Assembly (NCBI GenBank): GCA_000994805.1
Contig: LCEQ01000003.1
Span: 1 to 36,095, forward strand
Reading direction: 5' to 3'
Source of the DNA: Candidatus Azambacteria bacterium GW2011_GWA2_42_9
GTDB taxonomy: Bacteria; Patescibacteriota; Minisyncoccia; UBA10092
Length of the DNA: 36,095 bases
Below the pieces are notes generated by a model, which saw nothing but the letters and a program-made list of their open reading frames with translations, was not told the origin of the DNA and did not search any database. The translations under genes and the position numbers were made by a program. Of the stretch, positions 21,134 through 33,712 are shown piece after piece (within the stretch, counting starts at the first letter, position 1; each line of letters opens with the position of its first letter).

Positions 21134-22641
21134 GGCAGTTTTCTAAAAAGCATGAGGATATCGCCGATGGCGATTTTTGGATCTCCGAAGTCAATTTCAA
21201 GGCCAGCTTCTTTTCCCGCTTCAATTTTACCCACCTCCTTTTTTTCCGATTGCAGGCCGGCAATTCGCCCTTGTCCCATTATTATATCATTTCTTATGAT
21301 TTCAAACCTTGATCCCTTGACGATTTCTCCCGAAATTACTTTACCTCCGACAACTTGGCGGTTTTTTTCCTGCCGGAAAATCGCGAGAACTTGCAAACGC
21401 CCGGTTTCCTCCCGCGTTGTTTTTGGCTTTAATTTTTCTTTGATAATCGCCTCGGCTTTGTCTAAAACATCATAGATTATGTTTCCGGAAATCACCGGAA
21501 TTTTTTCTTTTTCGGTTCCAAAAATTGCCGTTTCGATTTTAACATTAAAGGCGATTATTAAAGCGTCGCCAATAATCGCCGTTTTAAAATCGCTTTCAAT
21601 AACATTGCCAACCTCGGCTTTTAAAACTTTTATCGCGGCGTTTTCTCCCCCTTCGGGGGATCCCCCGAAGGGGGAGAATTGCATTTTTTCAAAACTTTCT
21701 TTTAACGCTTCAACCGAACTTTGAACATCGCCTTTTATTATCAAATGAACGTAATTTGATTTTTCCTCGGTTGACTCAACCGATTTTTCTATCAGTTCCC
21801 CGATTTTTTTAGCGACCTTGAGCGTAACGGTGAAGGGGATTTTTTCTGTAATGAATTTATCGCCGATTAAGGGCAGTTCGTTAAAACCGACAACAAGAAC
21901 CGGCGAAGAAAATGCCGCTTTTTTAATGGGGTTTCCTAAAAAGTTCTCCAGGATTTTTATTTTTCCCGTCGCTGTGCCGCTTAATATGTAATCGCCGGTT
22001 TCCATGGTGCCGTCCAGTATTAAAAGCGAAGCGACAAAACCGCGGCGCGAATCCAAATTTGTTTCAATAACAACGCCTTCAGCGGATTTATCGGGGTTTC
22101 CCTTTAACTCGCCAAGATCGGCCAAAAGCTCTATTAAATCCAAAAGTTCTCCAACATTGGTTCCCGGCTTGGCCGCGATTTCAACCGAAGGAATTTTGCC
22201 GCCCCACGATTCAACCAGAACATCGTGCTCGGCCAGTTCTTTTTTAACACGCTCCGGGCTGGATTCGGGCTTATCAATTTTATTGATAGCGACAATAAAA
22301 GGAAGCTCCGCGCTCTTTATATGTTCCAGCGCTTCCAGTGTCTGGGGCTTTACGCCGTCATCGGCGGCCACAACCAAAACGGCGATGTCTGCGGCTTTAG
22401 CACCGCGCGCTCGCAGTTTTGAAAACGCTTCATGTCCCGGCGTGTCTAGGAAAGTAATCTTTTTGTTTTTATGGATAATTTCATAAGCGCCGATATGCTG
22501 GGTGATGCCGCCGGCTTCGCCTTCGGCGACGCTGGTTTTCCTGATATAGTCTAAGAGTTTGGTTTTGCCATGGTCAACGTGGCCCATCACGACAACAACG
22601 GGCGGCCGGGGGATTAAGTTATTATTTTTTTGTTCTGCCAT
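21130..22641 (-). CDS. infB: translation initiation factor IF-2 (short form lacking the N-terminal region)
   Basis: RPPVVVVMGHVDHGKTKLLD (G1), DTPGHEAF (G3) and NKID (G4), followed by domains II-IV. Confidence 0.96.
   Translation of the reverse strand: MAEQKNNNLIPRPPVVVVMGHVDHGKTKLLDYIRKTSVAEGEAGGITQHIGAYEIIHKNKKITFLDTPGHEAFSKLRARGAKAADIAVLVVAADDGVKPQTLEALEHIKSAELPFIVAINKIDKPESSPERVKKELAEHDVLVESWGGKIPSVEIAAKPGTNVGELLDLIELLADLGELKGNPDKSAEGVVIETNLDSRRGFVASLLILDGTMETGDYILSGTATGKIKILENFLGNPIKKAAFSSPVLVVGFNELPLIGDKFITEKIPFTVTLKVAKKIGELIEKSVESTEEKSNYVHLIIKGDVQSSVEALKESFEKMQFSPFGGSPEGGENAAIKVLKAEVGNVIESDFKTAIIGDALIIAFNVKIETAIFGTEKEKIPVISGNIIYDVLDKAEAIIKEKLKPKTTREETGRLQVLAIFRQEKNRQVVGGKVISGEIVKGSRFEIIRNDIIMGQGRIAGLQSEKKEVGKIEAGKEAGLEIDFGDPKIAIGDILMLFRKLP
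21643..21678. repeat. 36-bp perfect palindrome inside infB
   Basis: TTCTCCCCCTTCGGGGGA|TCCCCCGAAGGGGGAGAA. Each half is itself a C5/G5 hairpin with a TTCG or GAAG loop. It encodes FSPFGGSPEGGE. Confidence 0.97.
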
Positions 22642-22687: not shown

Positions 22688-22724
22688 GACTATTATCATC
22701 CGATCGGCTGATAATGGTCAATTT
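22688..22724 (-). promoter_or_regulatory. 37-bp palindromic promoter/operator module, copy 1 (upstream of infB)
   Basis: GACTATTATCA-TCCGATCGGC-TGATAATGGTC plus AATTT. Read on the minus strand it contains TTGACC-18-GATAAT. It is 32/37 identical to 23300-23336. Confidence 0.6.
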
Positions 22725-23292
22725 ACAGTAAATTAAATTTGTTTTTTAGATCTAGTTCTGTATCTACGCTCTTCACCTTTAAAAATCTCACATAAGGCGC
22801 GAGTTCAAATATTTCGGTAATGAAATCAATTTCAGCTTTACATTCGTATGGATGAATAAATACGCTTTTCTGCATCGGATAAAATCCAAGCTCTTTTAGT
22901 TTAGCCGCCAGCGCTTTTCTCCCGGGACTTTTATCTTCGGGGATATCAAAAATCACTAAACGCCACAACTTGTCCCATCTTATCGGCTTTTTAATCTCTA
23001 TTTTATCTAAATTATATTTCAAAATTTTATTTTTCCCGTTTTCACTTAAAACAAGTTTGACAGTACCGTCTTTGTTTTCTTTATAATCAATCAACTTAGA
23101 TTGATATAGTCTTTTGATTGACCTTCTAAGGCTTAGTTCGTTTATTTTCTTCCACTCTTTGGCAATCTTTTTTACCACTCTAAAATAAACATCCGGTCGG
23201 TGTGTCAATGACAAGGTTAACCCACCCACTAAGAGTAATAAAATTTTCTTTTGCATTGGTCCTAATTCTCTCATCGTTTTTGATATTATCAT
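22723..23292 (-). CDS. wHTH plus Cas2/VapD-fold (PaaX-like) putative transcriptional regulator
   Basis: N-terminal winged-helix-like segment. The C-terminal WRLVIFDIPEDKSPGRKALAAKLKELGFYPMQKSVFIHP matches the PaaX/Cas2 ferredoxin-fold pattern. The start is ambiguous (M1, M7 or M13). Confidence 0.6.
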   Translation of the reverse strand: MIISKTMRELGPMQKKILLLLVGGLTLSLTHRPDVYFRVVKKIAKEWKKINELSLRRSIKRLYQSKLIDYKENKDGTVKLVLSENGKNKILKYNLDKIEIKKPIRWDKLWRLVIFDIPEDKSPGRKALAAKLKELGFYPMQKSVFIHPYECKAEIDFITEIFELAPYVRFLKVKSVDTELDLKNKFNLL

Positions 23293-25192: not shown

Positions 25193-25284
25193 TGGCGGAG
25201 AGTACAGGATTCGAACCTGTGCGGGGTTTTTTAGACCCCCGCGGTTTAGCAAACCGCTGCCTTAAGCCGCTCGGCCAACTCTCC
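25193..25284 (-). tRNA. tRNA-Ser (anticodon GCU), class II, CCA encoded
   Basis: Acceptor GGAGAGT/ACTCTCC, anticodon arm GCGGT-TTGCTAA-ACCGC, long variable arm, T arm ACAGG-TTCGAAT-CCTGT, then G-CCA. The CCA end is 2 nt from the murD-like ATG. Confidence 0.9.
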
Positions 25285-25296
25285 AAGAATGCCGCT

Positions 25297-25325
25297 ATTT
25301 TACATAAAAAACGGCGGTTTGTAAA
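25297..25325 (-). promoter_or_regulatory. putative promoter TTTACA-17-TAAAAT for tRNA-Ser(GCU)
   Basis: Read on the minus strand. The -10 ends 12 nt before the tRNA 5' end. Confidence 0.5.
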
Positions 25326-25338
25326 TAAAATTTTAAAG

Positions 25339-25367
25339 TTGACAGAATTCTTTTATTGGCGTATACC
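25339..25367 (+). promoter_or_regulatory. putative promoter TTGACA-17-TATACC
   Basis: Consensus -35 with exact 17-nt spacing. An AGGGAGG RBS follows 8 nt before the ATG at 25410. Confidence 0.55.
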
Positions 25368-25409
25368 GCAAACATATAGTACTTTAATTTTCTTAGGGAG
25401 GGCTTGAAA

Positions 25410-25931
25410 ATGAGGAAAATCGGAGCATTGATAATGGCGGTTGTTTTTATTCTTCCCGGATGCGCCACTTTTGATAATCAGAAATTTGGAAATAAATTTT
25501 TTTCTGAAGAGATTGTTTGGAAAGAATTCAGCGCCAATATCCGCGTTTGGCTTAAAGACGGAATTAACCTTCTTAAGTCCGACGACTTGATTTCAAAATT
25601 TGGCGGGCCGGTAACGACGATCCAATTTTTGGAAGGCGTTGCCCTGGAGTGGGAATATAGAGAAATTTATAAGAAAAAAATTGATTATATTATCGGCCAG
25701 TCCCAGAGTTCGATTGAAAACATGTATGTGTTAATGGCGGTATTTAATGACGCCGATAAACTTTCAAATTTTTCTATTAGCCAAACCAATCGTGATGGCA
25801 AGGGGCAAATTTGGACCTCAAAGCAAATTATTGAAATGACGGGAGCGGCGGCTTTCATTTATATTGGCGGCCGTTGGATGGGAAGAACAATTGACAGGGC
25901 GGTCATAAAAGGCCGAGAAGCCGCGTCATAA
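25410..25931 (+). CDS. hypothetical lipoprotein
   Basis: MRKIGALIMAVVFILPGC lipobox. Strong SD before the ATG at 25410 (the ORF track starts at TTG 25404). No family recognised. Confidence 0.7.
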   Translation: MRKIGALIMAVVFILPGCATFDNQKFGNKFFSEEIVWKEFSANIRVWLKDGINLLKSDDLISKFGGPVTTIQFLEGVALEWEYREIYKKKIDYIIGQSQSSIENMYVLMAVFNDADKLSNFSISQTNRDGKGQIWTSKQIIEMTGAAAFIYIGGRWMGRTIDRAVIKGREAAS

Positions 25932-25937
25932 AATTTC

Positions 25938-25973
25938 AAAACTCTTTAAGCCCGCGGGCTTAAAGAGTTTTTT
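25938..25973 (+). terminator. strong intrinsic terminator
   Basis: AAAACTCTTTAAGCC-CGCG-GGCTTAAAGAGTTTT plus TT, a ~15-bp stem. Confidence 0.85.
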
Positions 25974-25988
25974 AACAAAAATGAAAAT

Positions 25989-26015
25989 CCCCCGTCCCGC
26001 AGTGCGGGACGGGGC
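25989..26015 (-). terminator. intrinsic terminator of the NTF2-like lipoprotein gene (within the left inverted repeat)
   Basis: CCCCGTCCCG-loop-CGGGACGGGG, followed on the minus strand by GATTTTCATTTTT. Confidence 0.75.
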
Positions 26016-26038
26016 TTTGGTTCCGCCGTTTGGTGGTG

Positions 26039-26503
26039 TTACTGATCGTAATAGTAAATTTTCCAAACCCCACCTTCTCGGCGGAGTTTGAAAAGATAGG
26101 AGACTGAACCCGACCAGTCGCGGTCGCCGACGCCACGCTTGATGACGTCTACAATGTAGGAGACCTCGGCGGTATTGCCCGATATCTCCACATTCAGATT
26201 CCGCATCGTGCGGATTCTTGAGGATTTGTCCGCACTCTTCTTTGCGGTATATTGTCGCCAGTAGCTTTCAGCGGTGTGCGACCCGCCGATGTACGACGAC
26301 TTCAAAACAACATCTTTGGTGGTAACAACCATAAACTCAGCAAGGGTTTTGGCCGCGTAGAAAGCGTCTACGGTGGCCATCACCTCTTGTTTTTCAGGCG
26401 GCAAGACCGCCTTCATTTCGTTGTAGGTGGTGGCGCAGCCCGACAGAGCCAGGCCGACCGCAACCGCGATCAGAACTCCAATCAGGAAGTTGGCTCGCTT
26501 CAT
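26039..26503 (-). CDS. NTF2-like (SnoaL/DUF4440-type) lipoprotein
   Basis: Lipobox LALSGC, GAGGAGG SD, and a C-terminal GGVWKIYYYDQ beta-strand typical of NTF2-like folds. GC-rich codon usage. Confidence 0.65.
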   Translation of the reverse strand: MKRANFLIGVLIAVAVGLALSGCATTYNEMKAVLPPEKQEVMATVDAFYAAKTLAEFMVVTTKDVVLKSSYIGGSHTAESYWRQYTAKKSADKSSRIRTMRNLNVEISGNTAEVSYIVDVIKRGVGDRDWSGSVSYLFKLRREGGVWKIYYYDQ

Positions 26504-26580
26504 GGGATTCCTCCTCGGCTCTCTTGAGCCATTTTCGGGGTTTTTAGTTATTCGAGAACCAAACCTATTTTTATACCATA

Positions 26581-26609
26581 ATTATATCTTATTTTTCATC
26601 CCTTGTCAA
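26581..26609 (-). promoter_or_regulatory. consensus sigma70 promoter TTGACA-17-TATAAT (minus strand)
   Basis: On the minus strand the sequence reads TTGACA AGGGATGAAAAATAAGA TATAAT. Both hexamers are perfect. Confidence 0.7.
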
Positions 26610-26631
26610 ATTGTTATTTTTATGGTACAAT
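26603..26631 (+). promoter_or_regulatory. promoter TTGTCA-17-TACAAT (plus strand), -35 overlapping the divergent -35
   Basis: TTGTCA at 26603-26608, a 17-nt spacer, and TACAAT at 26626-26631. Confidence 0.6.
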
Positions 26632-26711
26632 TGAGGCACGAGTGAAGTTCTGGAACAAAAAAGCCAAAAATCCCAAAAAACCGGCGGTAAATCCGCCAAA
26701 AGGAGGATGTC

Positions 26712-27173
26712 ATGAACGAGCTCGCGTTTGCTCTGGTTGTATGGATCAGCAGCGTAACCGGCTACCCCGTGCCATCTACGGCGGACTTGCCAGAGATCAT
26801 GCAGATGACATCGGCCGAACTGAAGGTCAAGGTGATGGGTGCAAACGCCGAGAAGTCCGATTATGAAATTCTTGGCGGCTACGACGTGAAGGAAAATAAG
26901 CTCTATCTGAGCACGAGTTTCAATCCGCAGAACATCAGGAGCCAGAGCGACCTCGTTCACGAGTTGGTGCATTTCCTCCAGGTGCGCAATCGGACTCGCC
27001 AGCCCCTGTGCGACAACGGCGATGAAGCTGAGGCCTACACGGTCGAAAACCAATGGATGAAGGAACATGGTTTGCCGCCCGCAGTTCCCGAGCAGCACAT
27101 TGTGCTCATGAGTCTTTGCAACGTTGACAGCGTTGATGACGCTGTAGCAATTCTCAAGAGCGAGATGCGCTAA
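26712..27173 (+). CDS. small HExxH metallopeptidase-like protein (possibly DUF4157-like)
   Basis: AAGGAGG SD 5 nt before the ATG. Hydrophobic N-terminus MNELAFALVVWISSVTG. The motif LVHELVHFLQ with downstream EAEAY fits the LL.HEL.HV.Q pattern as I remember it. Confidence 0.6.
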   Translation: MNELAFALVVWISSVTGYPVPSTADLPEIMQMTSAELKVKVMGANAEKSDYEILGGYDVKENKLYLSTSFNPQNIRSQSDLVHELVHFLQVRNRTRQPLCDNGDEAEAYTVENQWMKEHGLPPAVPEQHIVLMSLCNVDSVDDAVAILKSEMR

Positions 27174-27199
27174 GTTAACCGTGGGCAGGAGAACCGCCG

Positions 27200-27235
27200 G
27201 CCCCATTCCAACTCGGGATGGGGCTTTTCATTTTT
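27200..27235 (+). terminator. intrinsic terminator (within the right inverted repeat)
   Basis: GCCCCATTCC-AACTC-GGGATGGGGC followed by TTTTCATTTTT. Confidence 0.75.
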
Positions 27236-27284
27236 GTCTGAAATTTTTTGGATAAAAATCAGAGTTTATGATTATATTATTCAT

Positions 27285-28346
27285 ATGAAGATACTCCATA
27301 TTTTGCCTCCGACAAATATCGGGCCGATTGATAAAAAATTACACACAGCCGGGATGATTCATTCCGTCTGGCTTTTGGATAAGTTTCTAACGAAAAGAGG
27401 GTATGAATCTTATGTTGCTTGGAGCAAAAACAGTAAAATTTGCGGTCGGCTCATACCGATAATAAATAACCTAACAGTTGATAGAATTCGCGAACCTAAA
27501 AAAGATTTTTTTACCAATTATTACGAAAAAATTTTTGACTTGGTTAACGATTCTGATTTTGATATTATCCATAACCATAAAAGGTTTATGGATTCATCAA
27601 TTCCATATCTGACATTTACCGTTGCCCTGACTAAAAAACAGACAGATGGCTACGTTAAGGGCGGTTATCAGGTTGATAAGATTATCAATAATGGTATTGA
27701 CATAAATGAATATCAAATAGGAAAAGGCAGACGGGAATTTTTACTAGCGATTGCCAGGATACTTCCCGATAAAGGCCAGGATGTGGCAATAAAAGTTTCT
27801 CGGCAAACCGGATTGCCTCTGATTATTGCCGGCGATATTTGGGATAAAAAATATTTTCATGAAAAAGTCGAGCCCCATATTGATGGAAAAAAAATAAAAT
27901 ATCTTGGCCCGGTGGATTTTGAAACAAAGATAAAGCTTTATCAAGGGGCCATTGCTTTGCTTGTGCCCGTTGAATGGGAGGAGCCATTTAATTTAACAAT
28001 GGTTGAGGCGATGGCTTGCGGGACGCCCGTAATCGGCTACAATCACGGCGCGATTGCCGAGGTTATTAAAGACGGGGAAACAGGATTTGTCGTTAGTAAT
28101 GTCGAAGAAATGACCGAAGCGGTAAAAAAAATTTCCGGCATTAATAAAAATATTTGCCGGGATTATGTGAAAGACAATTTTAATATAGAAAAGGTTATTG
28201 ATGGATACGAAATGATATATAAGCAAGTGGCAGAAAGGAAAAAATTTCATTCATTTATATATCCGCTAACGAAAATGGGGATTGCGAGTAATAAAAATCT
28301 AAGTTGGGTCGGTTCTTATATAAGGAAAAATATTATTAATTTCTGA
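27285..28346 (+). CDS. GT4-family (Glycos_transf_1) glycosyltransferase
   Basis: MKILHILPP start and the EX7E region EEPFNLTMVEAMACGTPVIG...E. The N-terminal domain looks short. Confidence 0.8.
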   Translation: MKILHILPPTNIGPIDKKLHTAGMIHSVWLLDKFLTKRGYESYVAWSKNSKICGRLIPIINNLTVDRIREPKKDFFTNYYEKIFDLVNDSDFDIIHNHKRFMDSSIPYLTFTVALTKKQTDGYVKGGYQVDKIINNGIDINEYQIGKGRREFLLAIARILPDKGQDVAIKVSRQTGLPLIIAGDIWDKKYFHEKVEPHIDGKKIKYLGPVDFETKIKLYQGAIALLVPVEWEEPFNLTMVEAMACGTPVIGYNHGAIAEVIKDGETGFVVSNVEEMTEAVKKISGINKNICRDYVKDNFNIEKVIDGYEMIYKQVAERKKFHSFIYPLTKMGIASNKNLSWVGSYIRKNIINF

Positions 28347-29705
28347 TTATTCCAAACGGGATACAAATGTTCTTTTTTTACCATCGGGTCCGATCGGTAT
28401 TTCTTTCAGTATCGATATCGATATATCTGTGTCTTTTCCGAGAATATTTTTAGCATCATGAATTATTTTGTCCTTTATATCTTTTTTAAAAAAATCTTCA
28501 GATTCTGAAACTATATTAAAAACTATTTTATCTTCAGTTTCTTGAACAACCTGATACTGTTTTATTTTATCCGTGAACTGCCAAATCGCAGGCCCGATTT
28601 CAAGAAAATGACTCTGCTTTCCATTAGGCAGAATTATTATTTCTTTAAGCCGTCCTTTGAAAGTTAGAATCGGTAAAGTTCGGCCGCATGCGCAAGGTCC
28701 CGGAATTATTTTTCCTTGATCTCCAACAAGATAACGAATAAACGGCATGATTTTATTTTCAAACATTGTAATGGCAATATTGCCAGTATGACCATGGGGC
28801 AATTGATAACCACGTTCATCAACAATTTCCAAATATAGCCACTCGCTATTTATATGAAAATTTCCAAACTCGCATTCTTGAGCGATTGTCATATTTTCTT
28901 TTGTTCCATAAGAACGGAATACCGGGCATCCGAGGGATTGCTTTATAAACTTTGATTCTTCCGGAGACAATGGCTCGGCTGCCGCGATAACAGCCTTAAT
29001 ATTGTGATTTATGCGGTCATTTTTTATGAGCTTGGCTAAGTGAATAAGAAAAGAAGATAAACTTTCCAAAATTACAGGCATAGAAGCAATCAAGGGATAT
29101 AAATCAAATTTTTTTTGCTCCAGCTCCCTCGGACTTGTGTAACTAAATAATATTCCTTCGGATTCCAAACCCGGATGGTTTGATTTCATTATTTTTATAA
29201 TCTGTCTGGGCTTACCGCAATACCAGTCTAAAAATCGATTGCGAATTGCCAATCTTCTGTTTAGCATTCCAATATCGCCATGAAATTTAAATGGTATTCC
29301 GGTTGATCCTGATGTACTTTTCAAATAAGAATTTTTTTCCGACACGTTTTTTACAGAGCACAATTTAGGAAAAGCCATTTGGAGTTCGGTTTTTGATATT
29401 GTTGTAATTTTTTGAATATCTTCCAATTTGTTAAAATCAACATTAGGGTTGAAATTTGCATTTTCAAATTTTTCTTTCCAAAAAATGACATTGTTGTACG
29501 AAAATATTAATAGATTTCTGATTTGTTTGATTTGGAGCCCCTCCATTGATTTTTTGGAAAAATACTGGCTATATTTAAGACATGCGGTATCTATGTTCGT
29601 CAGGATTTTTTTAATATAAATATTAGGCGAATAATCCAATTTAAATAAGCTCCAAAAACTATTATCGCGCCGTGTTAACATTATTGAGATTATGCTCCGT
29701 ATCAT
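28347..29705 (-). CDS. CapK/PaaK-like adenylate-forming enzyme (phenylacetate-CoA ligase family)
   Basis: The TSGSTGIPFKF AMP-binding motif and the overall length fit the family. The stop directly abuts the GT4 stop (TGATTA). Only 24 nt separate it from the divergent ATG, so an internal start (e.g. M54) is possible. Confidence 0.7.
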   Translation of the reverse strand: MIRSIISIMLTRRDNSFWSLFKLDYSPNIYIKKILTNIDTACLKYSQYFSKKSMEGLQIKQIRNLLIFSYNNVIFWKEKFENANFNPNVDFNKLEDIQKITTISKTELQMAFPKLCSVKNVSEKNSYLKSTSGSTGIPFKFHGDIGMLNRRLAIRNRFLDWYCGKPRQIIKIMKSNHPGLESEGILFSYTSPRELEQKKFDLYPLIASMPVILESLSSFLIHLAKLIKNDRINHNIKAVIAAAEPLSPEESKFIKQSLGCPVFRSYGTKENMTIAQECEFGNFHINSEWLYLEIVDERGYQLPHGHTGNIAITMFENKIMPFIRYLVGDQGKIIPGPCACGRTLPILTFKGRLKEIIILPNGKQSHFLEIGPAIWQFTDKIKQYQVVQETEDKIVFNIVSESEDFFKKDIKDKIIHDAKNILGKDTDISISILKEIPIGPDGKKRTFVSRLE

Positions 29706-29729
29706 TAAGATTAATTATATACCTTTTTT

Positions 29730-32700
29730 ATGAAGGACTGTCCAAATAATAACGCCGACATCGGTTTTATCGCGCAGGTGCCGTATCATTTTTATGTTTT
29801 TAAAAATATCATAAAACATCTTTCCGATGCGGAATTTATTGTCGGCGAACCATATTCGTACGATGAACCGCCAGAAATACAATCCAAGCGTCTCGGAGGG
29901 CTAATTGATCTGATAGAAAAAGAAAAAATTCCTTGGAGGTTTTTTGATTTTGAAAAAGATCGTAATCCCAGAAATAATTTTTTTGAAAAATATAATATTT
30001 TAGTAGCCACAACTGCCAATGGCATTATCACATCGCCGCTGATAAAATCAATTAAAAAAGTTCGGGTTCAGTACGGCCAGAGCAAGGACGCTTTTGAATT
30101 CGGCGATTGGAACAGATATTTTGATTTAATTCTTGCACAAGGTCCGTATTCAGCGCAACATTTTAGAGCATTAACTCAATGCGTGGAAATCGGCTTCCCT
30201 AAATTCGACGATTGGTTTAACGGCAAAATTGACGGCGCGGACGCAGGAGAACTGAAAAGCAAAATGGATCCGCGAAAAAAAACACTATTGTATTTGCCGA
30301 CGCACGGCGCGCTTTCTTCGCTTGAAAAATATCAAGAACCTCTTTTGTCATTAAGGAACAAGTACAATATTTTGGTCAAATTTCATCCTCGCACAGTTTG
30401 GTATGATTCGGGGCAAGTTTTGTTTTACAAAAATAATGGCTTTGCAACTTATGACGATTCTGCCGATATTTTACCGATGCTGAAAATTGCCGATATCGTT
30501 ATCAGTGATAGCGGCGGCGCAGCTTTTGACGCTCTTTTGGCGGAGAAATCTTTAGTAATTTTGGACGTTCCCATAGCCGCGGAAGAAACGGGAGAACTAC
30601 AAACTCAAGAAAACAGCATAGAACAGGTTATAAAAAGAGAGAGGAAACGAATTGGGCCGGTTGTTGATTCGCCGGATAAATTGGAATCGGCCTTAGAAAT
30701 CGCGGAACAGGAATTTTTTGAAGAACGGCGACGAGAATGGCGAGGGAAATTATTTTCATTTGTTGATGGTAAAGACGGCGAGCGCGCCGCCAGAGAGATT
30801 TTAAGATTTAAAAACAGAGGCCCCAATTATTCTGTTATTATCCCAACGTTTAATCGTTGCCAATCCTTAATTAAAGCTCTTAATTCTACTATAAATCAAA
30901 CCATCTCGGCCTCTAATTACGAAATCCTTGTTGTTGACGACGGATCTGCTGACGACACAAGTGAAGTTGTTTCGGAATTCCAAAAAAAGCATCCGAATGT
31001 CAAATATTTTTACCAACAGAATGGCGGCCCCGCTAAAGCACGCAATAAGGGAATTAAAGAATCTAAAGGTGAAATTATCTTTTTCACCGACGACGATTGT
31101 GTTGTTCCGCCGAATTGGATGGAAACCTTGCTTGATGGATTTGAGAGGTACCCAGGTGTCGCAGGTGTGGGAGGTTGGTACCAGCCGGCAAATAAATCAT
31201 TGGCGGATAAATATTTTCAAAGATATTTAGATTATTTTGATCGGCAAAATAATATTGGCATGATGGATACCGAAATTAAATCAAACATTTTTGGATATAA
31301 CCTTGCGGGTAATACTGCAAACATGGCTTATAAAAAATCTGTTTTGGAAGAAGTAAGTGGATTTGATGAAAAGCTTTATTTCGTCGGTGGCGTGGATTGG
31401 GAATTAAAAAAAAATATCCAAAACCGCGGCTATTATCTTTTGTATGTTCCTTTTATGGTCAATCATTTTAAAAATTTTAACGCGCGAACTTTTATTAAAA
31501 AATTCTTTAATCGGGGCCGCGGATATCATTATATGATAAAAAAACATCCCGATTTAAGAAATAGTTCTTACTACAATGTTAATCTCATAAATCTTTTGGA
31601 GCAAACGGTGAATTATGCGTTAAATGGTAACAAATTTTTACCTCTTCATTTTCATTTTTTGGCCTTGCTTTGCGTTTTTTGCGGCCGGTTTTATGCTAAA
31701 TATATTAATCAATTCAGTAATATTCCTAAAATTCTACTTAATGCGTCAGATAATTTTGAAATCGTTAAAAAAAAGACAGGCGAAGAAAGAATTTTTACAA
31801 CCAAGATTCGGCCGTTCAAATGTTGCGATACAAATACGCGAATACATACTAATAATACGAATAATACTAATAAGATAAAATATTCCATCATCATCCCGAC
31901 ATTTAATCGTTGCCAATCCTTAATCAAAGCTCTTAATTCTACTATAAATCAAACTATCCCAGCCTTTAATTATGAAATTATTGTTATTGATGACGATTCG
32001 ACGGATGATACAAAATCTCAAATTTCCCGCCTTCGCCAAGGCTTTGGCGGGCAAGCAAAACCGGAAATAAGATATTTTAAGATTGAACATGGTGGCCCCG
32101 CCAAAGCCAGAAACAAGGGAATTAAAGAATCTAAAGGTGAAATTATCTTTTTCACCGACGACGATTGTGTTGTTCCGTCGAATTGGATGGAAACCTTGCT
32201 TGATGGTTATAAAAGATATCCCAATATTGTGGGAGTTGGGGGGTGGCTTATAGAACCAAAAGAAACATTAAGAAAGAGTTATTTGGCAAGATATATACAC
32301 TATATTCATTTTTGTATTGATTATTTTCCGGCGTGGACATTATTTAACTGCGAGATTTTAAGCAACGATCCCGAACGGGGATTAGGCAACTTTGCTGGCA
32401 ATACGGCCAATCTGTCCATAAAAAGGGATATTTTGGAACAAATGAGCGGTTTCAGAGAAGATTATTATTGGCCGGGAAGCGAGGACTCGGATTTGTCTTT
32501 CAGGATTCTCAATGCCGGCTTAAAACTTCTATATGTGCCATTTCACGTTGAGCATATTAAAAATATAGATTTATGGGGACTTATGAAATTATTTTTCAAA
32601 CGCGGCGCCAATTTTTATCTTTTTCTGAAATTTAATAAAGAAGCGTTGGATAAAATTAACGCCGGTAATCCGGAAAATTACGATACTTTCCCGATACTTA

Positions 32701-32801
32701 TAAGGCGATTATTTTATCGGCCGCAAAAATTTTTGACCCTATTGCAGTTTTTAAGCCATAAATTGGGAATGGTTTATATGAAAAATAAATTAGGTGAATA
32801 A
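29730..32801 (+). CDS. three-module enzyme: CDP-glycerol glycerophosphotransferase (TagB/TagF)-like plus GT2 plus GT2
   Basis: TagF-like module: LLYLPTHG, KFHP and ADIVISDSGGAAFDALL. Two GT2 modules each start YS(V/I)IIPTFNRCQSLIKALNSTINQT...DD(G/D)S.DDT...FFTDDDCVVP.NW. Confidence 0.8.
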   Translation: MKDCPNNNADIGFIAQVPYHFYVFKNIIKHLSDAEFIVGEPYSYDEPPEIQSKRLGGLIDLIEKEKIPWRFFDFEKDRNPRNNFFEKYNILVATTANGIITSPLIKSIKKVRVQYGQSKDAFEFGDWNRYFDLILAQGPYSAQHFRALTQCVEIGFPKFDDWFNGKIDGADAGELKSKMDPRKKTLLYLPTHGALSSLEKYQEPLLSLRNKYNILVKFHPRTVWYDSGQVLFYKNNGFATYDDSADILPMLKIADIVISDSGGAAFDALLAEKSLVILDVPIAAEETGELQTQENSIEQVIKRERKRIGPVVDSPDKLESALEIAEQEFFEERRREWRGKLFSFVDGKDGERAAREILRFKNRGPNYSVIIPTFNRCQSLIKALNSTINQTISASNYEILVVDDGSADDTSEVVSEFQKKHPNVKYFYQQNGGPAKARNKGIKESKGEIIFFTDDDCVVPPNWMETLLDGFERYPGVAGVGGWYQPANKSLADKYFQRYLDYFDRQNNIGMMDTEIKSNIFGYNLAGNTANMAYKKSVLEEVSGFDEKLYFVGGVDWELKKNIQNRGYYLLYVPFMVNHFKNFNARTFIKKFFNRGRGYHYMIKKHPDLRNSSYYNVNLINLLEQTVNYALNGNKFLPLHFHFLALLCVFCGRFYAKYINQFSNIPKILLNASDNFEIVKKKTGEERIFTTKIRPFKCCDTNTRIHTNNTNNTNKIKYSIIIPTFNRCQSLIKALNSTINQTIPAFNYEIIVIDDDSTDDTKSQISRLRQGFGGQAKPEIRYFKIEHGGPAKARNKGIKESKGEIIFFTDDDCVVPSNWMETLLDGYKRYPNIVGVGGWLIEPKETLRKSYLARYIHYIHFCIDYFPAWTLFNCEILSNDPERGLGNFAGNTANLSIKRDILEQMSGFREDYYWPGSEDSDLSFRILNAGLKLLYVPFHVEHIKNIDLWGLMKLFFKRGANFYLFLKFNKEALDKINAGNPENYDTFPILIRRLFYRPQKFLTLLQFLSHKLGMVYMKNKLGE
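31047..31138 (+). repeat. internal repeat copy A (91/92 nt identical to 32115-32206)
   Basis: AAGGGAATTAAAGAATCTAAAGGTGAAATTATCTTTTTCACCGACGACGATTGTGTTGTTCCG(C/T)CGAATTGGATGGAAACCTTGCTTGATGG. Confidence 0.95.
32115..32206 (+). repeat. internal repeat copy B
   Basis: Offset by 1068 nt from copy A. The flanking codons are clearly more diverged. Confidence 0.95.
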
Positions 32802-32803
32802 TT

Positions 32804-33712
32804 ATGTATTCTGTCGTTATTCCTACTTATAATCGTTCGGGCTCTCTTTTAAAAACACTATCCTCTGTTGTTAATCAGACGTTGCCCACGGATAATTATG
32901 AAGTTCTAATTATCGACGACGGCTCAATCGACAATACCGAAGAAATAGTAGCAAGGTACAAGCAGCAAGTAGCAAGTCCGGAAATACGGTATTTTAAAAT
33001 TAAACACGGCGGATCAGCGGCAGCTAAAAATTTTGGAATAAAACGGGCGAGGGGCGAAATCGTCTTTTTTACCGACGACGATTGCGTTGTTCCCAAAAAC
33101 TGGATGGTGACGCTTTTGGACGGCTACAGGAGATACCCAGAGGTGGTTGGTGTGGGGGGATATTTCAAGCCGCCGGACGGCGAGAATAGATTTTTTCAAA
33201 AGATGGCTTATTTAATAAACACCCTGGCCGATTCCTTTAATAAAGAAAAGATTATTGACAATTTCTTTTCTTCGGCGGCTTTTTCCGCCAATGTTTCGTA
33301 TAAAAAAGATATCTTGGAAAAAACAGGCGGTTTTGACGAAAACATTTCGGCTACGGCCAGCGTGGAATTAAGATACAGATTAATTGCCAAGCAAAAAGAA
33401 AAAATTCTCTGTATTCCGATGTTTGTCACGCATCATTGCGATTTGAATTTTTTCGGATACATTAAAAAACTTTTCCGCCAGGGCCGATGCAAACAATATT
33501 GCAATGACAAATATTTTAGAGGTAATCCGCCGCTGGCGTTTGACGTAACTTTTTGGCGCGCGTCAAAAAAATTGTTTGTTGCGTTTCATAATATTTTAAA
33601 AATAAAAGATGTAAAAAAACCGGATTTGCCGGCGATTTTTATCTTTTTATTTTTGGAAGCATTCCTCAATGCCGCCGGCGGATCTGTGGAAAAATATTTT
33701 AGTAAATTATGA
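32804..33712 (+). CDS. GT2-family glycosyltransferase (third paralog of the same module)
   Basis: YSVVIPTYNRSGSLLKTLSSVVNQT, DDGSIDNT and FFTDDDCVVPKNW. It starts 2 nt after the upstream stop. Confidence 0.85.
   Translation: MYSVVIPTYNRSGSLLKTLSSVVNQTLPTDNYEVLIIDDGSIDNTEEIVARYKQQVASPEIRYFKIKHGGSAAAKNFGIKRARGEIVFFTDDDCVVPKNWMVTLLDGYRRYPEVVGVGGYFKPPDGENRFFQKMAYLINTLADSFNKEKIIDNFFSSAAFSANVSYKKDILEKTGGFDENISATASVELRYRLIAKQKEKILCIPMFVTHHCDLNFFGYIKKLFRQGRCKQYCNDKYFRGNPPLAFDVTFWRASKKLFVAFHNILKIKDVKKPDLPAIFIFLFLEAFLNAAGGSVEKYFSKL

Follow-up and report, generated by a model that had tools for sequence, protein, structure and literature searches.

Does a short GC-rich block with inverted repeats at its ends, set in an AT-rich genome, record a recent insertion or an older event? 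The question is raised by positions 25975-27237 of a 36,095-nucleotide stretch (hereafter the window) of contig LCEQ01000003.1, from Candidatus Azambacteria bacterium GW2011_GWA2_42_9. The segment holds two divergently transcribed genes, A, encoding a lipoprotein, and B, encoding a member of the DUF6647 family. A first-pass annotation, made from the DNA letters alone, had described it as a recently acquired, self-contained expression cassette. The analysis reported here agrees with the description of the unit and disagrees with its age: the segment is probably an old GC-rich two-gene islet, horizontally acquired, insulated by terminators, fixed at one locus and not mobile.

Composition and conservation of the segment

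The segment has a G+C content (GC) of 0.513, against 0.398 for the remainder of the window. The peak among all sliding 1263-nt windows, 0.514, starts at position 25981, and the GC of the segment itself is reached by just 0.09% of such windows. The counts from which GC-rich coding DNA had been claimed were exact (36/60 at 26101-26160 and 26/60 at 27301-27360), and the flanking genes, judged AT-rich by eye, are indeed so: at third codon positions (GC3) the 32 other genes of the window have a mean of 0.405, a standard deviation of 0.059 and a maximum of 0.537 (ftsZ). Compared with these genes, gene A (GC 0.527, GC3 0.65) lies at z = 4.2 and gene B (GC 0.539, GC3 0.69) at z = 4.9, most of the excess being at synonymous sites. 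Leave-one-out synonymous-codon likelihoods likewise set both genes apart (z = -3.2 for A and -4.4 for B), and the largest tetranucleotide distances of the window fall at the segment, which is thus an outlier in the sliding GC, codon and tetranucleotide checks alike. The spacer between the two genes is AT-rich (GC 0.385). The next-highest GC3 values belong to ftsZ, ftsA, hisS and ndk (0.47-0.54), and the lowest to glycan genes.

Of the collection's indexed blocks, 42 contain the exact B protein, and its context was read for 22 contigs from ENA, JGI and NCBI assemblies. All 22 have the order RbfA-IF2-PaaX_M-MurD-lip-A-B-GT4-CapK-GT2, lip being the lipoprotein gene to the left of the segment. Across both junctions, identity between population contigs and the window is 99.4-100%, with the exception of a 98.6% block in the GT2 region of one contig (L101), and both junctions are reproduced in at least 10 independent assemblies that differ in sample, assembler and archive (ENA, JGI, NCBI). 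The related contigs come from Rifle-type groundwater metagenomes. An intact MurD from a near-identical contig (L003) appears under Candidatus Azambacteria bacterium (KKS44632.1 and others), which assigns it to Azamiibacteriota, within the Parcubacteria group of Patescibacteria.

More diverged relatives carry the same unit. A 2.3-kb Logan contig (L004) has an A-like lipoprotein gene on the minus strand, a B homologue and a GT4 homologue in the same order as the window; its two segment genes have GC of 0.54 and 0.53, versus 0.36 for its GT4 gene, and GC3 of 0.63 versus 0.33. Between the window and L004, amino acid identity is 63% for B and 63% over aligned columns for GT4, and identity at 4-fold sites in conserved codons is 0.50 for B and 0.45 for GT4, the chance level being ~0.26. 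Because B and GT4 are equally diverged, the segment and its flank have diverged together; the shared order, GC contrast and equal divergence indicate that the unit predates the split between the window and L004. A third lineage (L070), in which B is 53% identical and has a GC3 of 0.59, has the same divergent lipoprotein start, with a promoter core that is 83% identical over 66 nt and aligned coding stretches that are 64-74% identical. The claim of recent acquisition therefore fails: the segment is syntenic, with the same GC, in the relatives recovered (two of them with the GT4 junction), and B and GT4 are both 63% identical in L004.

Promoters, terminators and the inverted repeat

The anatomy of the unit is compact (Table 1). 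The gene A promoter, whose perfect consensus the first-pass annotation had picked out, is the sole 12/12 sigma-70 match across the window, and the same perfect TTGACA-17-TATAAT is found in L004 and L070. The two promoters had been described as back to back in the short AT-rich spacer. Both are there; read from the sequence, their -35 hexamers share 5 bp, so that they are not simply side by side. The ribosome-binding sites are as strong as had been claimed, GGAGG being present upstream of 4/33 starts, namely those of A, B, the adjoining lipoprotein gene and a fourth gene. A and B each have a promoter, a ribosome-binding site and a terminator of their own, which makes the segment a self-contained expression unit; strong initiation signals combined with terminators on both sides would fit a highly expressed unit that is kept from reading into its neighbours.

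Table 1. Features of the A-B segment (window coordinates)
Feature	Position	Strand	Remarks
Left 13-nt inverted repeat copy	25975..25987		ACAAAAATGAAAA; minus-strand T-rich tail of gene A terminator
Gene A intrinsic-terminator hairpin	25990..26014	-	11 pairs, 10 of them G-C; whole 68-nt region folds at -29.3 kcal/mol
Gene A	26039..26503	-	Lipoprotein of 154 aa, fast-evolving
Gene A Shine-Dalgarno, GAGGAGG	26510..26516	-	
Gene A promoter, TTGACA-17-TATAAT	26581..26609	-	12/12 sigma-70 consensus
Gene B promoter, TTGTCA-17-TGgTACAAT	26603..26631	+	Extended -10
Gene B Shine-Dalgarno, AAGGAGG	26700..26706	+	
Gene B	26712..27173	+	153 aa, DUF6647 (PF20352)
Gene B intrinsic-terminator hairpin	27199..27225	+	11 pairs; whole 72-nt region folds at -27.7 kcal/mol
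Right 13-nt inverted repeat copy	27225..27237		TTTTCATTTTTGT; T-rich tail of gene B terminator

A small hairpin, GGCGG-TAAAT-CCGCC, lies at 26680-26699 in the 5' untranslated region of gene B, right before the ribosome-binding site; read on the minus strand it is terminator-like and followed by TTTTTTGGGATTTTTGG. The length of this untranslated region varies between the window, L004 and L070.

The hairpins at the two ends were proposed to terminate the two divergent genes, and their GC-rich 11-bp stems, each followed by a T-rich tail, bear this out. The exact 13-mer occurs only twice, at the left end on the plus strand and at the right end on the minus strand, and the repeat extends to 18 nt at 94% identity (25975-25992 and 27220-27237); an inverted repeat of at least 13 nt arose in 0/5000 shuffles of the end zones. 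The left terminator, as transcribed, aligns with the right terminators of the window, L004 and L070 on a consensus GCCCC-loop-GGGG-N-TTT(N)CAT, in which the CCCC/GGGG pairs are constant and the distal stem varies with its pairing retained. The stem of the gene B terminator is likewise preserved in L004 and L070 by altered stem bases. The right-end 13-mer drifts, to TTTACATATTTGT in L004 (2 mismatches) and to the largely different TTTTCCATAACTA in L070; since it is not conserved as such, it does not suit a recombination site under constraint. Judged from these alignments, the inverted repeat is the common 3' stem half plus T-tail of two paralogous, outward-facing intrinsic terminators. The "inverted-repeat ends" of the first-pass annotation are thus real as a 13-mer plus hairpins, and are not supported as mobile-element termini.

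At position 25989, at the base of the gene A terminator stem, the window has C and nine other assemblies have A. The lipoprotein gene to the left (25404-25931) has a lipobox LPGC, a GGAGG-type ribosome-binding site, a host-like GC of 0.405 and no Pfam family; it and gene A converge on an adjacent pair of terminators at 25938-26014.

Products of genes A and B

Gene B scores 30.6 bits against PF20352 (DUF6647; cutoff 24.1), residues 3-137 matching profile positions 38-167 of 174. The family comprises 1903 clusters at 50% identity (E <= 1e-3). H83, E84, H87 and E105, an HExxH motif with a downstream Glu, are invariant in 91 aligned members, and W11, Y57, C100 and C136 are nearly so. The AlphaFold2 model of gene B has a predicted local distance difference test score (pLDDT) of 94.4 and shows, in order, a backing helix, a three-stranded sheet, the HExxH helix and the Glu helix. 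A Foldseek search of BFVD with this model returned IrrE-like and SprT-like viral and phage proteins (E 7e-5 to 1e-2, template-modelling scores 0.45-0.67). Sequence-profile and fold searches of the Protein Data Bank (PDB) with gene B gave nothing significant (best E ~0.6-1); anthrax lethal factor and selecase headed the list, with E not below 0.5. A published embedding study places DUF6647 in peptidase clan MA (PMC11467057). By its signature, B is a DUF6647 mini-zincin, with predicted peptidase activity.

Compared with the clan MA mini-zincins (minigluzincins/selecase, the N-terminal domain of IrrE/ImmA, and SprT-like proteins), B has the HExxH motif, the invariant Glu 18 residues after the second His and the predicted layout, and passes the Pfam threshold of its family; it differs in that no solved structure matches it significantly. 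It also differs from the long members of DUF6647. Signal peptides are present in long GC-rich homologues, presumably from Pseudomonadota, and absent from B and the other short forms, which begin at the first conserved helix. Neighbours of B homologues were surveyed at 60 loci: none was common to more than 6 of them and none was A-like. Distant DUF6647 relatives (22-41% identity) also occur on 17 contigs classed as viral in IMG/VR (L074-L090), some of them longer than 100 kb.

Gene A begins with MKR, a hydrophobic stretch and a lipobox within residues 1-23 (MKRANFLIGVLIAVAVGLA-LSGC by direct reading); this N-terminus and its FGC/SGC motif are conserved in L004 and L070. Three NTF2-like Pfam families, together with the C-terminal domain of Rv0361, match it below threshold (E 1e-4 to 6e-2): SnoaL_4 (PF13577) at 22.4 against 24, DUF4440 at 20.4 against 25.2, the Rv0361 domain at 21.9 against 37, and SnoaL_3 also. 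No match was found by phmmer in the PDB. A is a lipoprotein, probably NTF2-like.

Gene A is also fast-evolving, with 30-35% identity to its L004 copy, while B and GT4 retain 63%. Within the population the allele of one contig (L003) carries 10 non-synonymous and 3 synonymous codon differences, concentrated in residues 44-65; the other variants of A differ by single residues. The flanks of this contig are 99.96% identical to the window, and 21 of its 27 substitutions fall within 26015-26374. The corresponding patch, in the comparison with L003/L103, covers ~390 bp (25988-26374) with 21 substitutions and 3 indels, spans the gene A terminator and residues 44-153, and includes multi-base changes in the neighbouring codons 58-62. 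It resembles a stretch brought in by recombination from a relative diverged by ~6%, which would imply another lineage carrying the segment. A diversity-generating retroelement was considered as the cause and set aside, on the substitution pattern alone, because the substitutions are not adenine-specific.

The pairing of a small HExxH protein with a fast-evolving, likely NTF2-like lipoprotein recalls secreted metallopeptidase effectors paired with lipoprotein immunity proteins; examples are the C-terminal domain of Pseudomonas aeruginosa VgrG2b with PA0261, and Tox-MPTase families with NTF2-fold immunity proteins. The similarity of gene B to the VgrG2b effector (E 0.3) is weak and non-significant, as is that to Tox-MPTase3 (E 0.02, below threshold). 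The differences from such pairs are that A and B are divergent rather than co-directional, that no delivery domain or secretion system lies nearby, that B homologues elsewhere have no A-like neighbour, and that B is a stand-alone 153-aa domain. PADLOC gave no hits, and PHROGs and NCBIfam likewise had no meaningful match. The unit thus does not qualify as a toxin-immunity or defence system.

Origin and significance of the A-B unit

By its GC-rich codon usage the unit is compositionally foreign, for which an old horizontal acquisition is the most likely explanation. A foreign two-gene unit would have been acquired before the split from lineages that are now 63% identical in B and GT4. Its genes are transcribed divergently from near-consensus sigma-70 promoters with overlapping -35 boxes, each ending at a strong GC-rich intrinsic terminator, and the terminators would separate a strongly expressed unit from its two neighbours, the lipoprotein gene that converges on it from the left and the co-directional GT4 gene to the right. 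The unit is fixed beside murD and the variable glycan cluster, and its GC has stayed high in every lineage seen.

Several observations weigh against this interpretation. An empty site was seen in none of the genomes, and acquisition is therefore inferred from composition only. The comparison with empty sites that the first-pass annotation had suggested was pursued by a metagenome scan and a GT4 protein search. The scan with the GT4 N-terminus gave only relatives of 30-34% identity; a 69% GT4 relative (L073) comes from a 1.35-kb contig with only 14 nt of sequence before the gene, and a 4992-nt Rifle contig with a mosaic GT4 (L072) has an upstream region unrelated to the window, neither of them showing an empty site. 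The closest relatives of B appear to be CPR (Candidate Phyla Radiation) homologues with host-like GC, and no GC-rich donor was identified. Across three lineages, with about half of the 4-fold sites different, GC3 has remained within 0.59-0.69; this is not expected from simple neutral amelioration, and codon-usage selection is possible. This lasting high GC3 is the one feature explained neither by simple amelioration nor by a known donor. The second-highest value, that of ftsZ (0.54), hints at an expression-linked trend in GC3. Insulation alone does not explain the exact 13/13 identity between terminators that are otherwise ~80% alike; a duplication of one terminator, or occasional conversion between both, could. 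For gene A, the AlphaFold2 model was unusable (pLDDT 53).

Several of these points would suit a different explanation, that A and B are native, very highly expressed genes whose GC-rich codons are kept by translational or mRNA-level selection with no horizontal transfer. The segment has the strongest promoter and ribosome-binding sites of the window, its GC3 persists despite the ~50% divergence at 4-fold sites, and ftsZ, ftsA, hisS and ndk follow it in GC3 while glycan genes come last. The phylogeny of B is also consistent with a native origin. In the neighbour-joining tree the window, L004 and L070 are monophyletic (100/100), and their sister is a low-GC CPR group together with P0006 (support 69/100). 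A GTDB scan found DUF6647 mainly in Pseudomonadota, where GC is similar to that of the segment; a donor in that phylum was considered and is not supported, as the tree places the window clade beside the low-GC CPR homologues. Against native expression, however, the two genes lie 4-5 standard deviations above every other gene, well over ftsZ, and the GC of first and second codon positions of gene A and of the terminator stems is raised as well. In Niyogibacteria-like CPR genomes the B homologue has host-like GC and sits among suf, tsf and rpsB genes; at such loci neither the homologue nor the adjoining ribosomal-protein and EF-Ts genes show a GC3 excess. The 4-fold sites of B are, moreover, no more conserved than those of GT4. 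We consider a native origin unlikely, though it is the alternative that best withstands these comparisons.

That the segment is instead a recently inserted mobile cassette (MITE-, transposon- or integron-like), with the inverted repeats serving as recombination or transposition ends, is highly improbable. A non-random 13-18-nt inverted repeat does lie exactly at the compositional boundaries, and the unit is self-contained and borders a variable glycan-gene region. Short end repeats and hairpins able to terminate transcription are features shared with miniature inverted-repeat transposable elements (MITEs), Correia-like elements and integron cassettes. A terminal repeat at the exact ends is what a MITE would have, yet here it coincides with terminator stem halves and tails. 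The same GT4 junction is found in a lineage 37% diverged in protein, with the segment equally diverged, and a single context was seen in 22/22 exact-B contigs. The flanks, AAGAGTTTTTTA and CTGAAATTTTTT, have no direct repeat of 3-12 nt that could be a target-site duplication. Integron attC core motifs (GTTRRRY / RYYYAAC) are absent from the end zones, no integrase is among the scanned neighbours, and no recombinase, transposase or integrase was found by Pfam scans of neighbours within the 36 kb examined, which identified MurD, GT4, CapK-like, GT2, IF-2, RbfA, DHH, PaaX_M, M50, NDK and ComEC. Integron gene cassettes are mostly promoterless, whereas the A-B unit carries its own promoters.

Nor did the window and the 22 contigs read show multiple copies or variable sites of insertion. 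The search for further copies that had been suggested found, within the window, the pattern GCCCC..GGGGNTTT at two sites only, both of them ends of the segment, and the right 13-mer drifts as an unconstrained T-tail would. A tRNA-Ser(GCT) gene (25193-25284, minus strand) lies 690 bp from the segment; its 3' end faces murD and thus away from the segment, and the lip gene lies between the two, an arrangement that does not suit a tRNA-targeted island. The 18-mer end motif was also sought in IMG/VR, where its four matches lie in unrelated sequences, no fewer than two being other hairpin-plus-T-tail sites, and look like chance. A scan of 25300-27700 against Rfam gave one sub-threshold hit (E 0.68).

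An assembly chimera, in which a GC-rich fragment of another organism was joined into an AT-rich contig, might be suspected from the sharp composition step at both ends and from local assembly defects elsewhere in the window, yet it can be dismissed, because both junctions recur at 99.9-100% identity in at least 10 contigs of different samples, assemblers and archives, and L004, diverged as it is, shares the right junction. The local defects are two gaps. The window lacks 125 bp of murD (24892/24893), including the GTRGKTTT P-loop, and the resulting frameshift leaves two open reading frames; it also lacks 90 bp (30 codons) of GT4 at 27578/27579, a stretch that is present in L004. Both missing stretches are present in all ten population contigs compared and neither gap junction has direct repeats, which makes a local defect of assembly, or a rare variant in the window's record, the probable cause of the gaps.

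The glycan genes to the right vary among assemblies. From the GT4 C-terminal third, starting at the EAMACG motif, through the CapK-like gene, contig L072 is 100% identical to the window (28001-30978); the N-terminal two-thirds of its GT4 are unrelated, and further upstream it encodes a PIG-L deacetylase and a Cys-rich protein. Either a co-occurring strain has a mosaic glycan locus, or the assembly joined two sequences at a conserved motif. The CapK-like protein varies in length: the window encodes 452 aa, most other contigs 444 aa, and two of them 427 or 399 aa. The intergenic stretches that flank its gene (28346/28347; 29699-29762) have indels between assemblies (L072, L095-L104). The 1023-aa GT2/glycerophosphotransferase protein (29730-32801) has an internal duplication ~1068 nt apart, to which identical hairpin motifs at 31068-31088 and 32136-32156 belong (82% self-match via L072). 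The main polymorphism hot spots among population contigs are at 30000-31000 and 32000-33000. Further left, a perfect 36-nt palindrome, TTCTCCCCCTTCGGGGGATCCCCCGAAGGGGGAGAA, at 21643-21678 within the infB (IF-2) coding region is the strongest hairpin of the window, and the gene between infB and murD (22723-23292, minus strand) encodes 188 aa whose central domain is PaaX_M / Cas2-like; the window showed neither a CRISPR array nor other cas genes.

A more speculative reading concerns function. A and B might form a lineage-specific surface module of episymbiotic Azambacteria, in which an extracytoplasmic zincin B is coupled to a diversifying NTF2-like lipoprotein A as partner, inhibitor or substrate-presenting factor, expression of the two is mutually exclusive through the common -35, and GC is actively maintained. 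We regard this combination as doubtful. If it were true, GC would not be a fading trace of transfer: selection, or recurrent recombination with relatives richer in GC, would maintain it, and the L003 patch, with its 10 non-synonymous and 3 synonymous differences, would stem from diversifying exchange at a surface that faces hosts or phages.

Returning to the old, fixed islet as the probable explanation, the segment is a compositional islet with a DUF6647 clan-MA zincin, both of them kinds already known, and in that sense is largely ordinary. In the amelioration framework of Lawrence and Ochman, small acquired islets are reportedly recognised by atypical GC and codon usage. The segment resembles them in its sharp compositional step, confined to a short gene block with its own expression signals beside a variable surface-glycan cluster. 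It differs in the lack of tRNA-3' integration, an integrase, direct repeats and an identified donor lineage, and in being old and syntenic across diverged lineages, yet not ameliorated. A caution follows for similar loci: a GC step, inverted-repeat ends and autonomous expression signals can together mimic a fresh mobile insertion, where comparison shows an old fixed islet.

For the CPR, the locus offers a clean case in which a block of foreign composition has failed to ameliorate despite substantial divergence, which bears on GC-based detection of transfer. The compact divergent promoter pair, with its overlapping -35 boxes, is a candidate for promoter competition. The uncharacterised DUF6647 zincin family gains a conserved genomic partner, a fast-evolving lipoprotein near envelope-glycan genes, and both proteins may have a role outside the cytoplasm, at the cell envelope.

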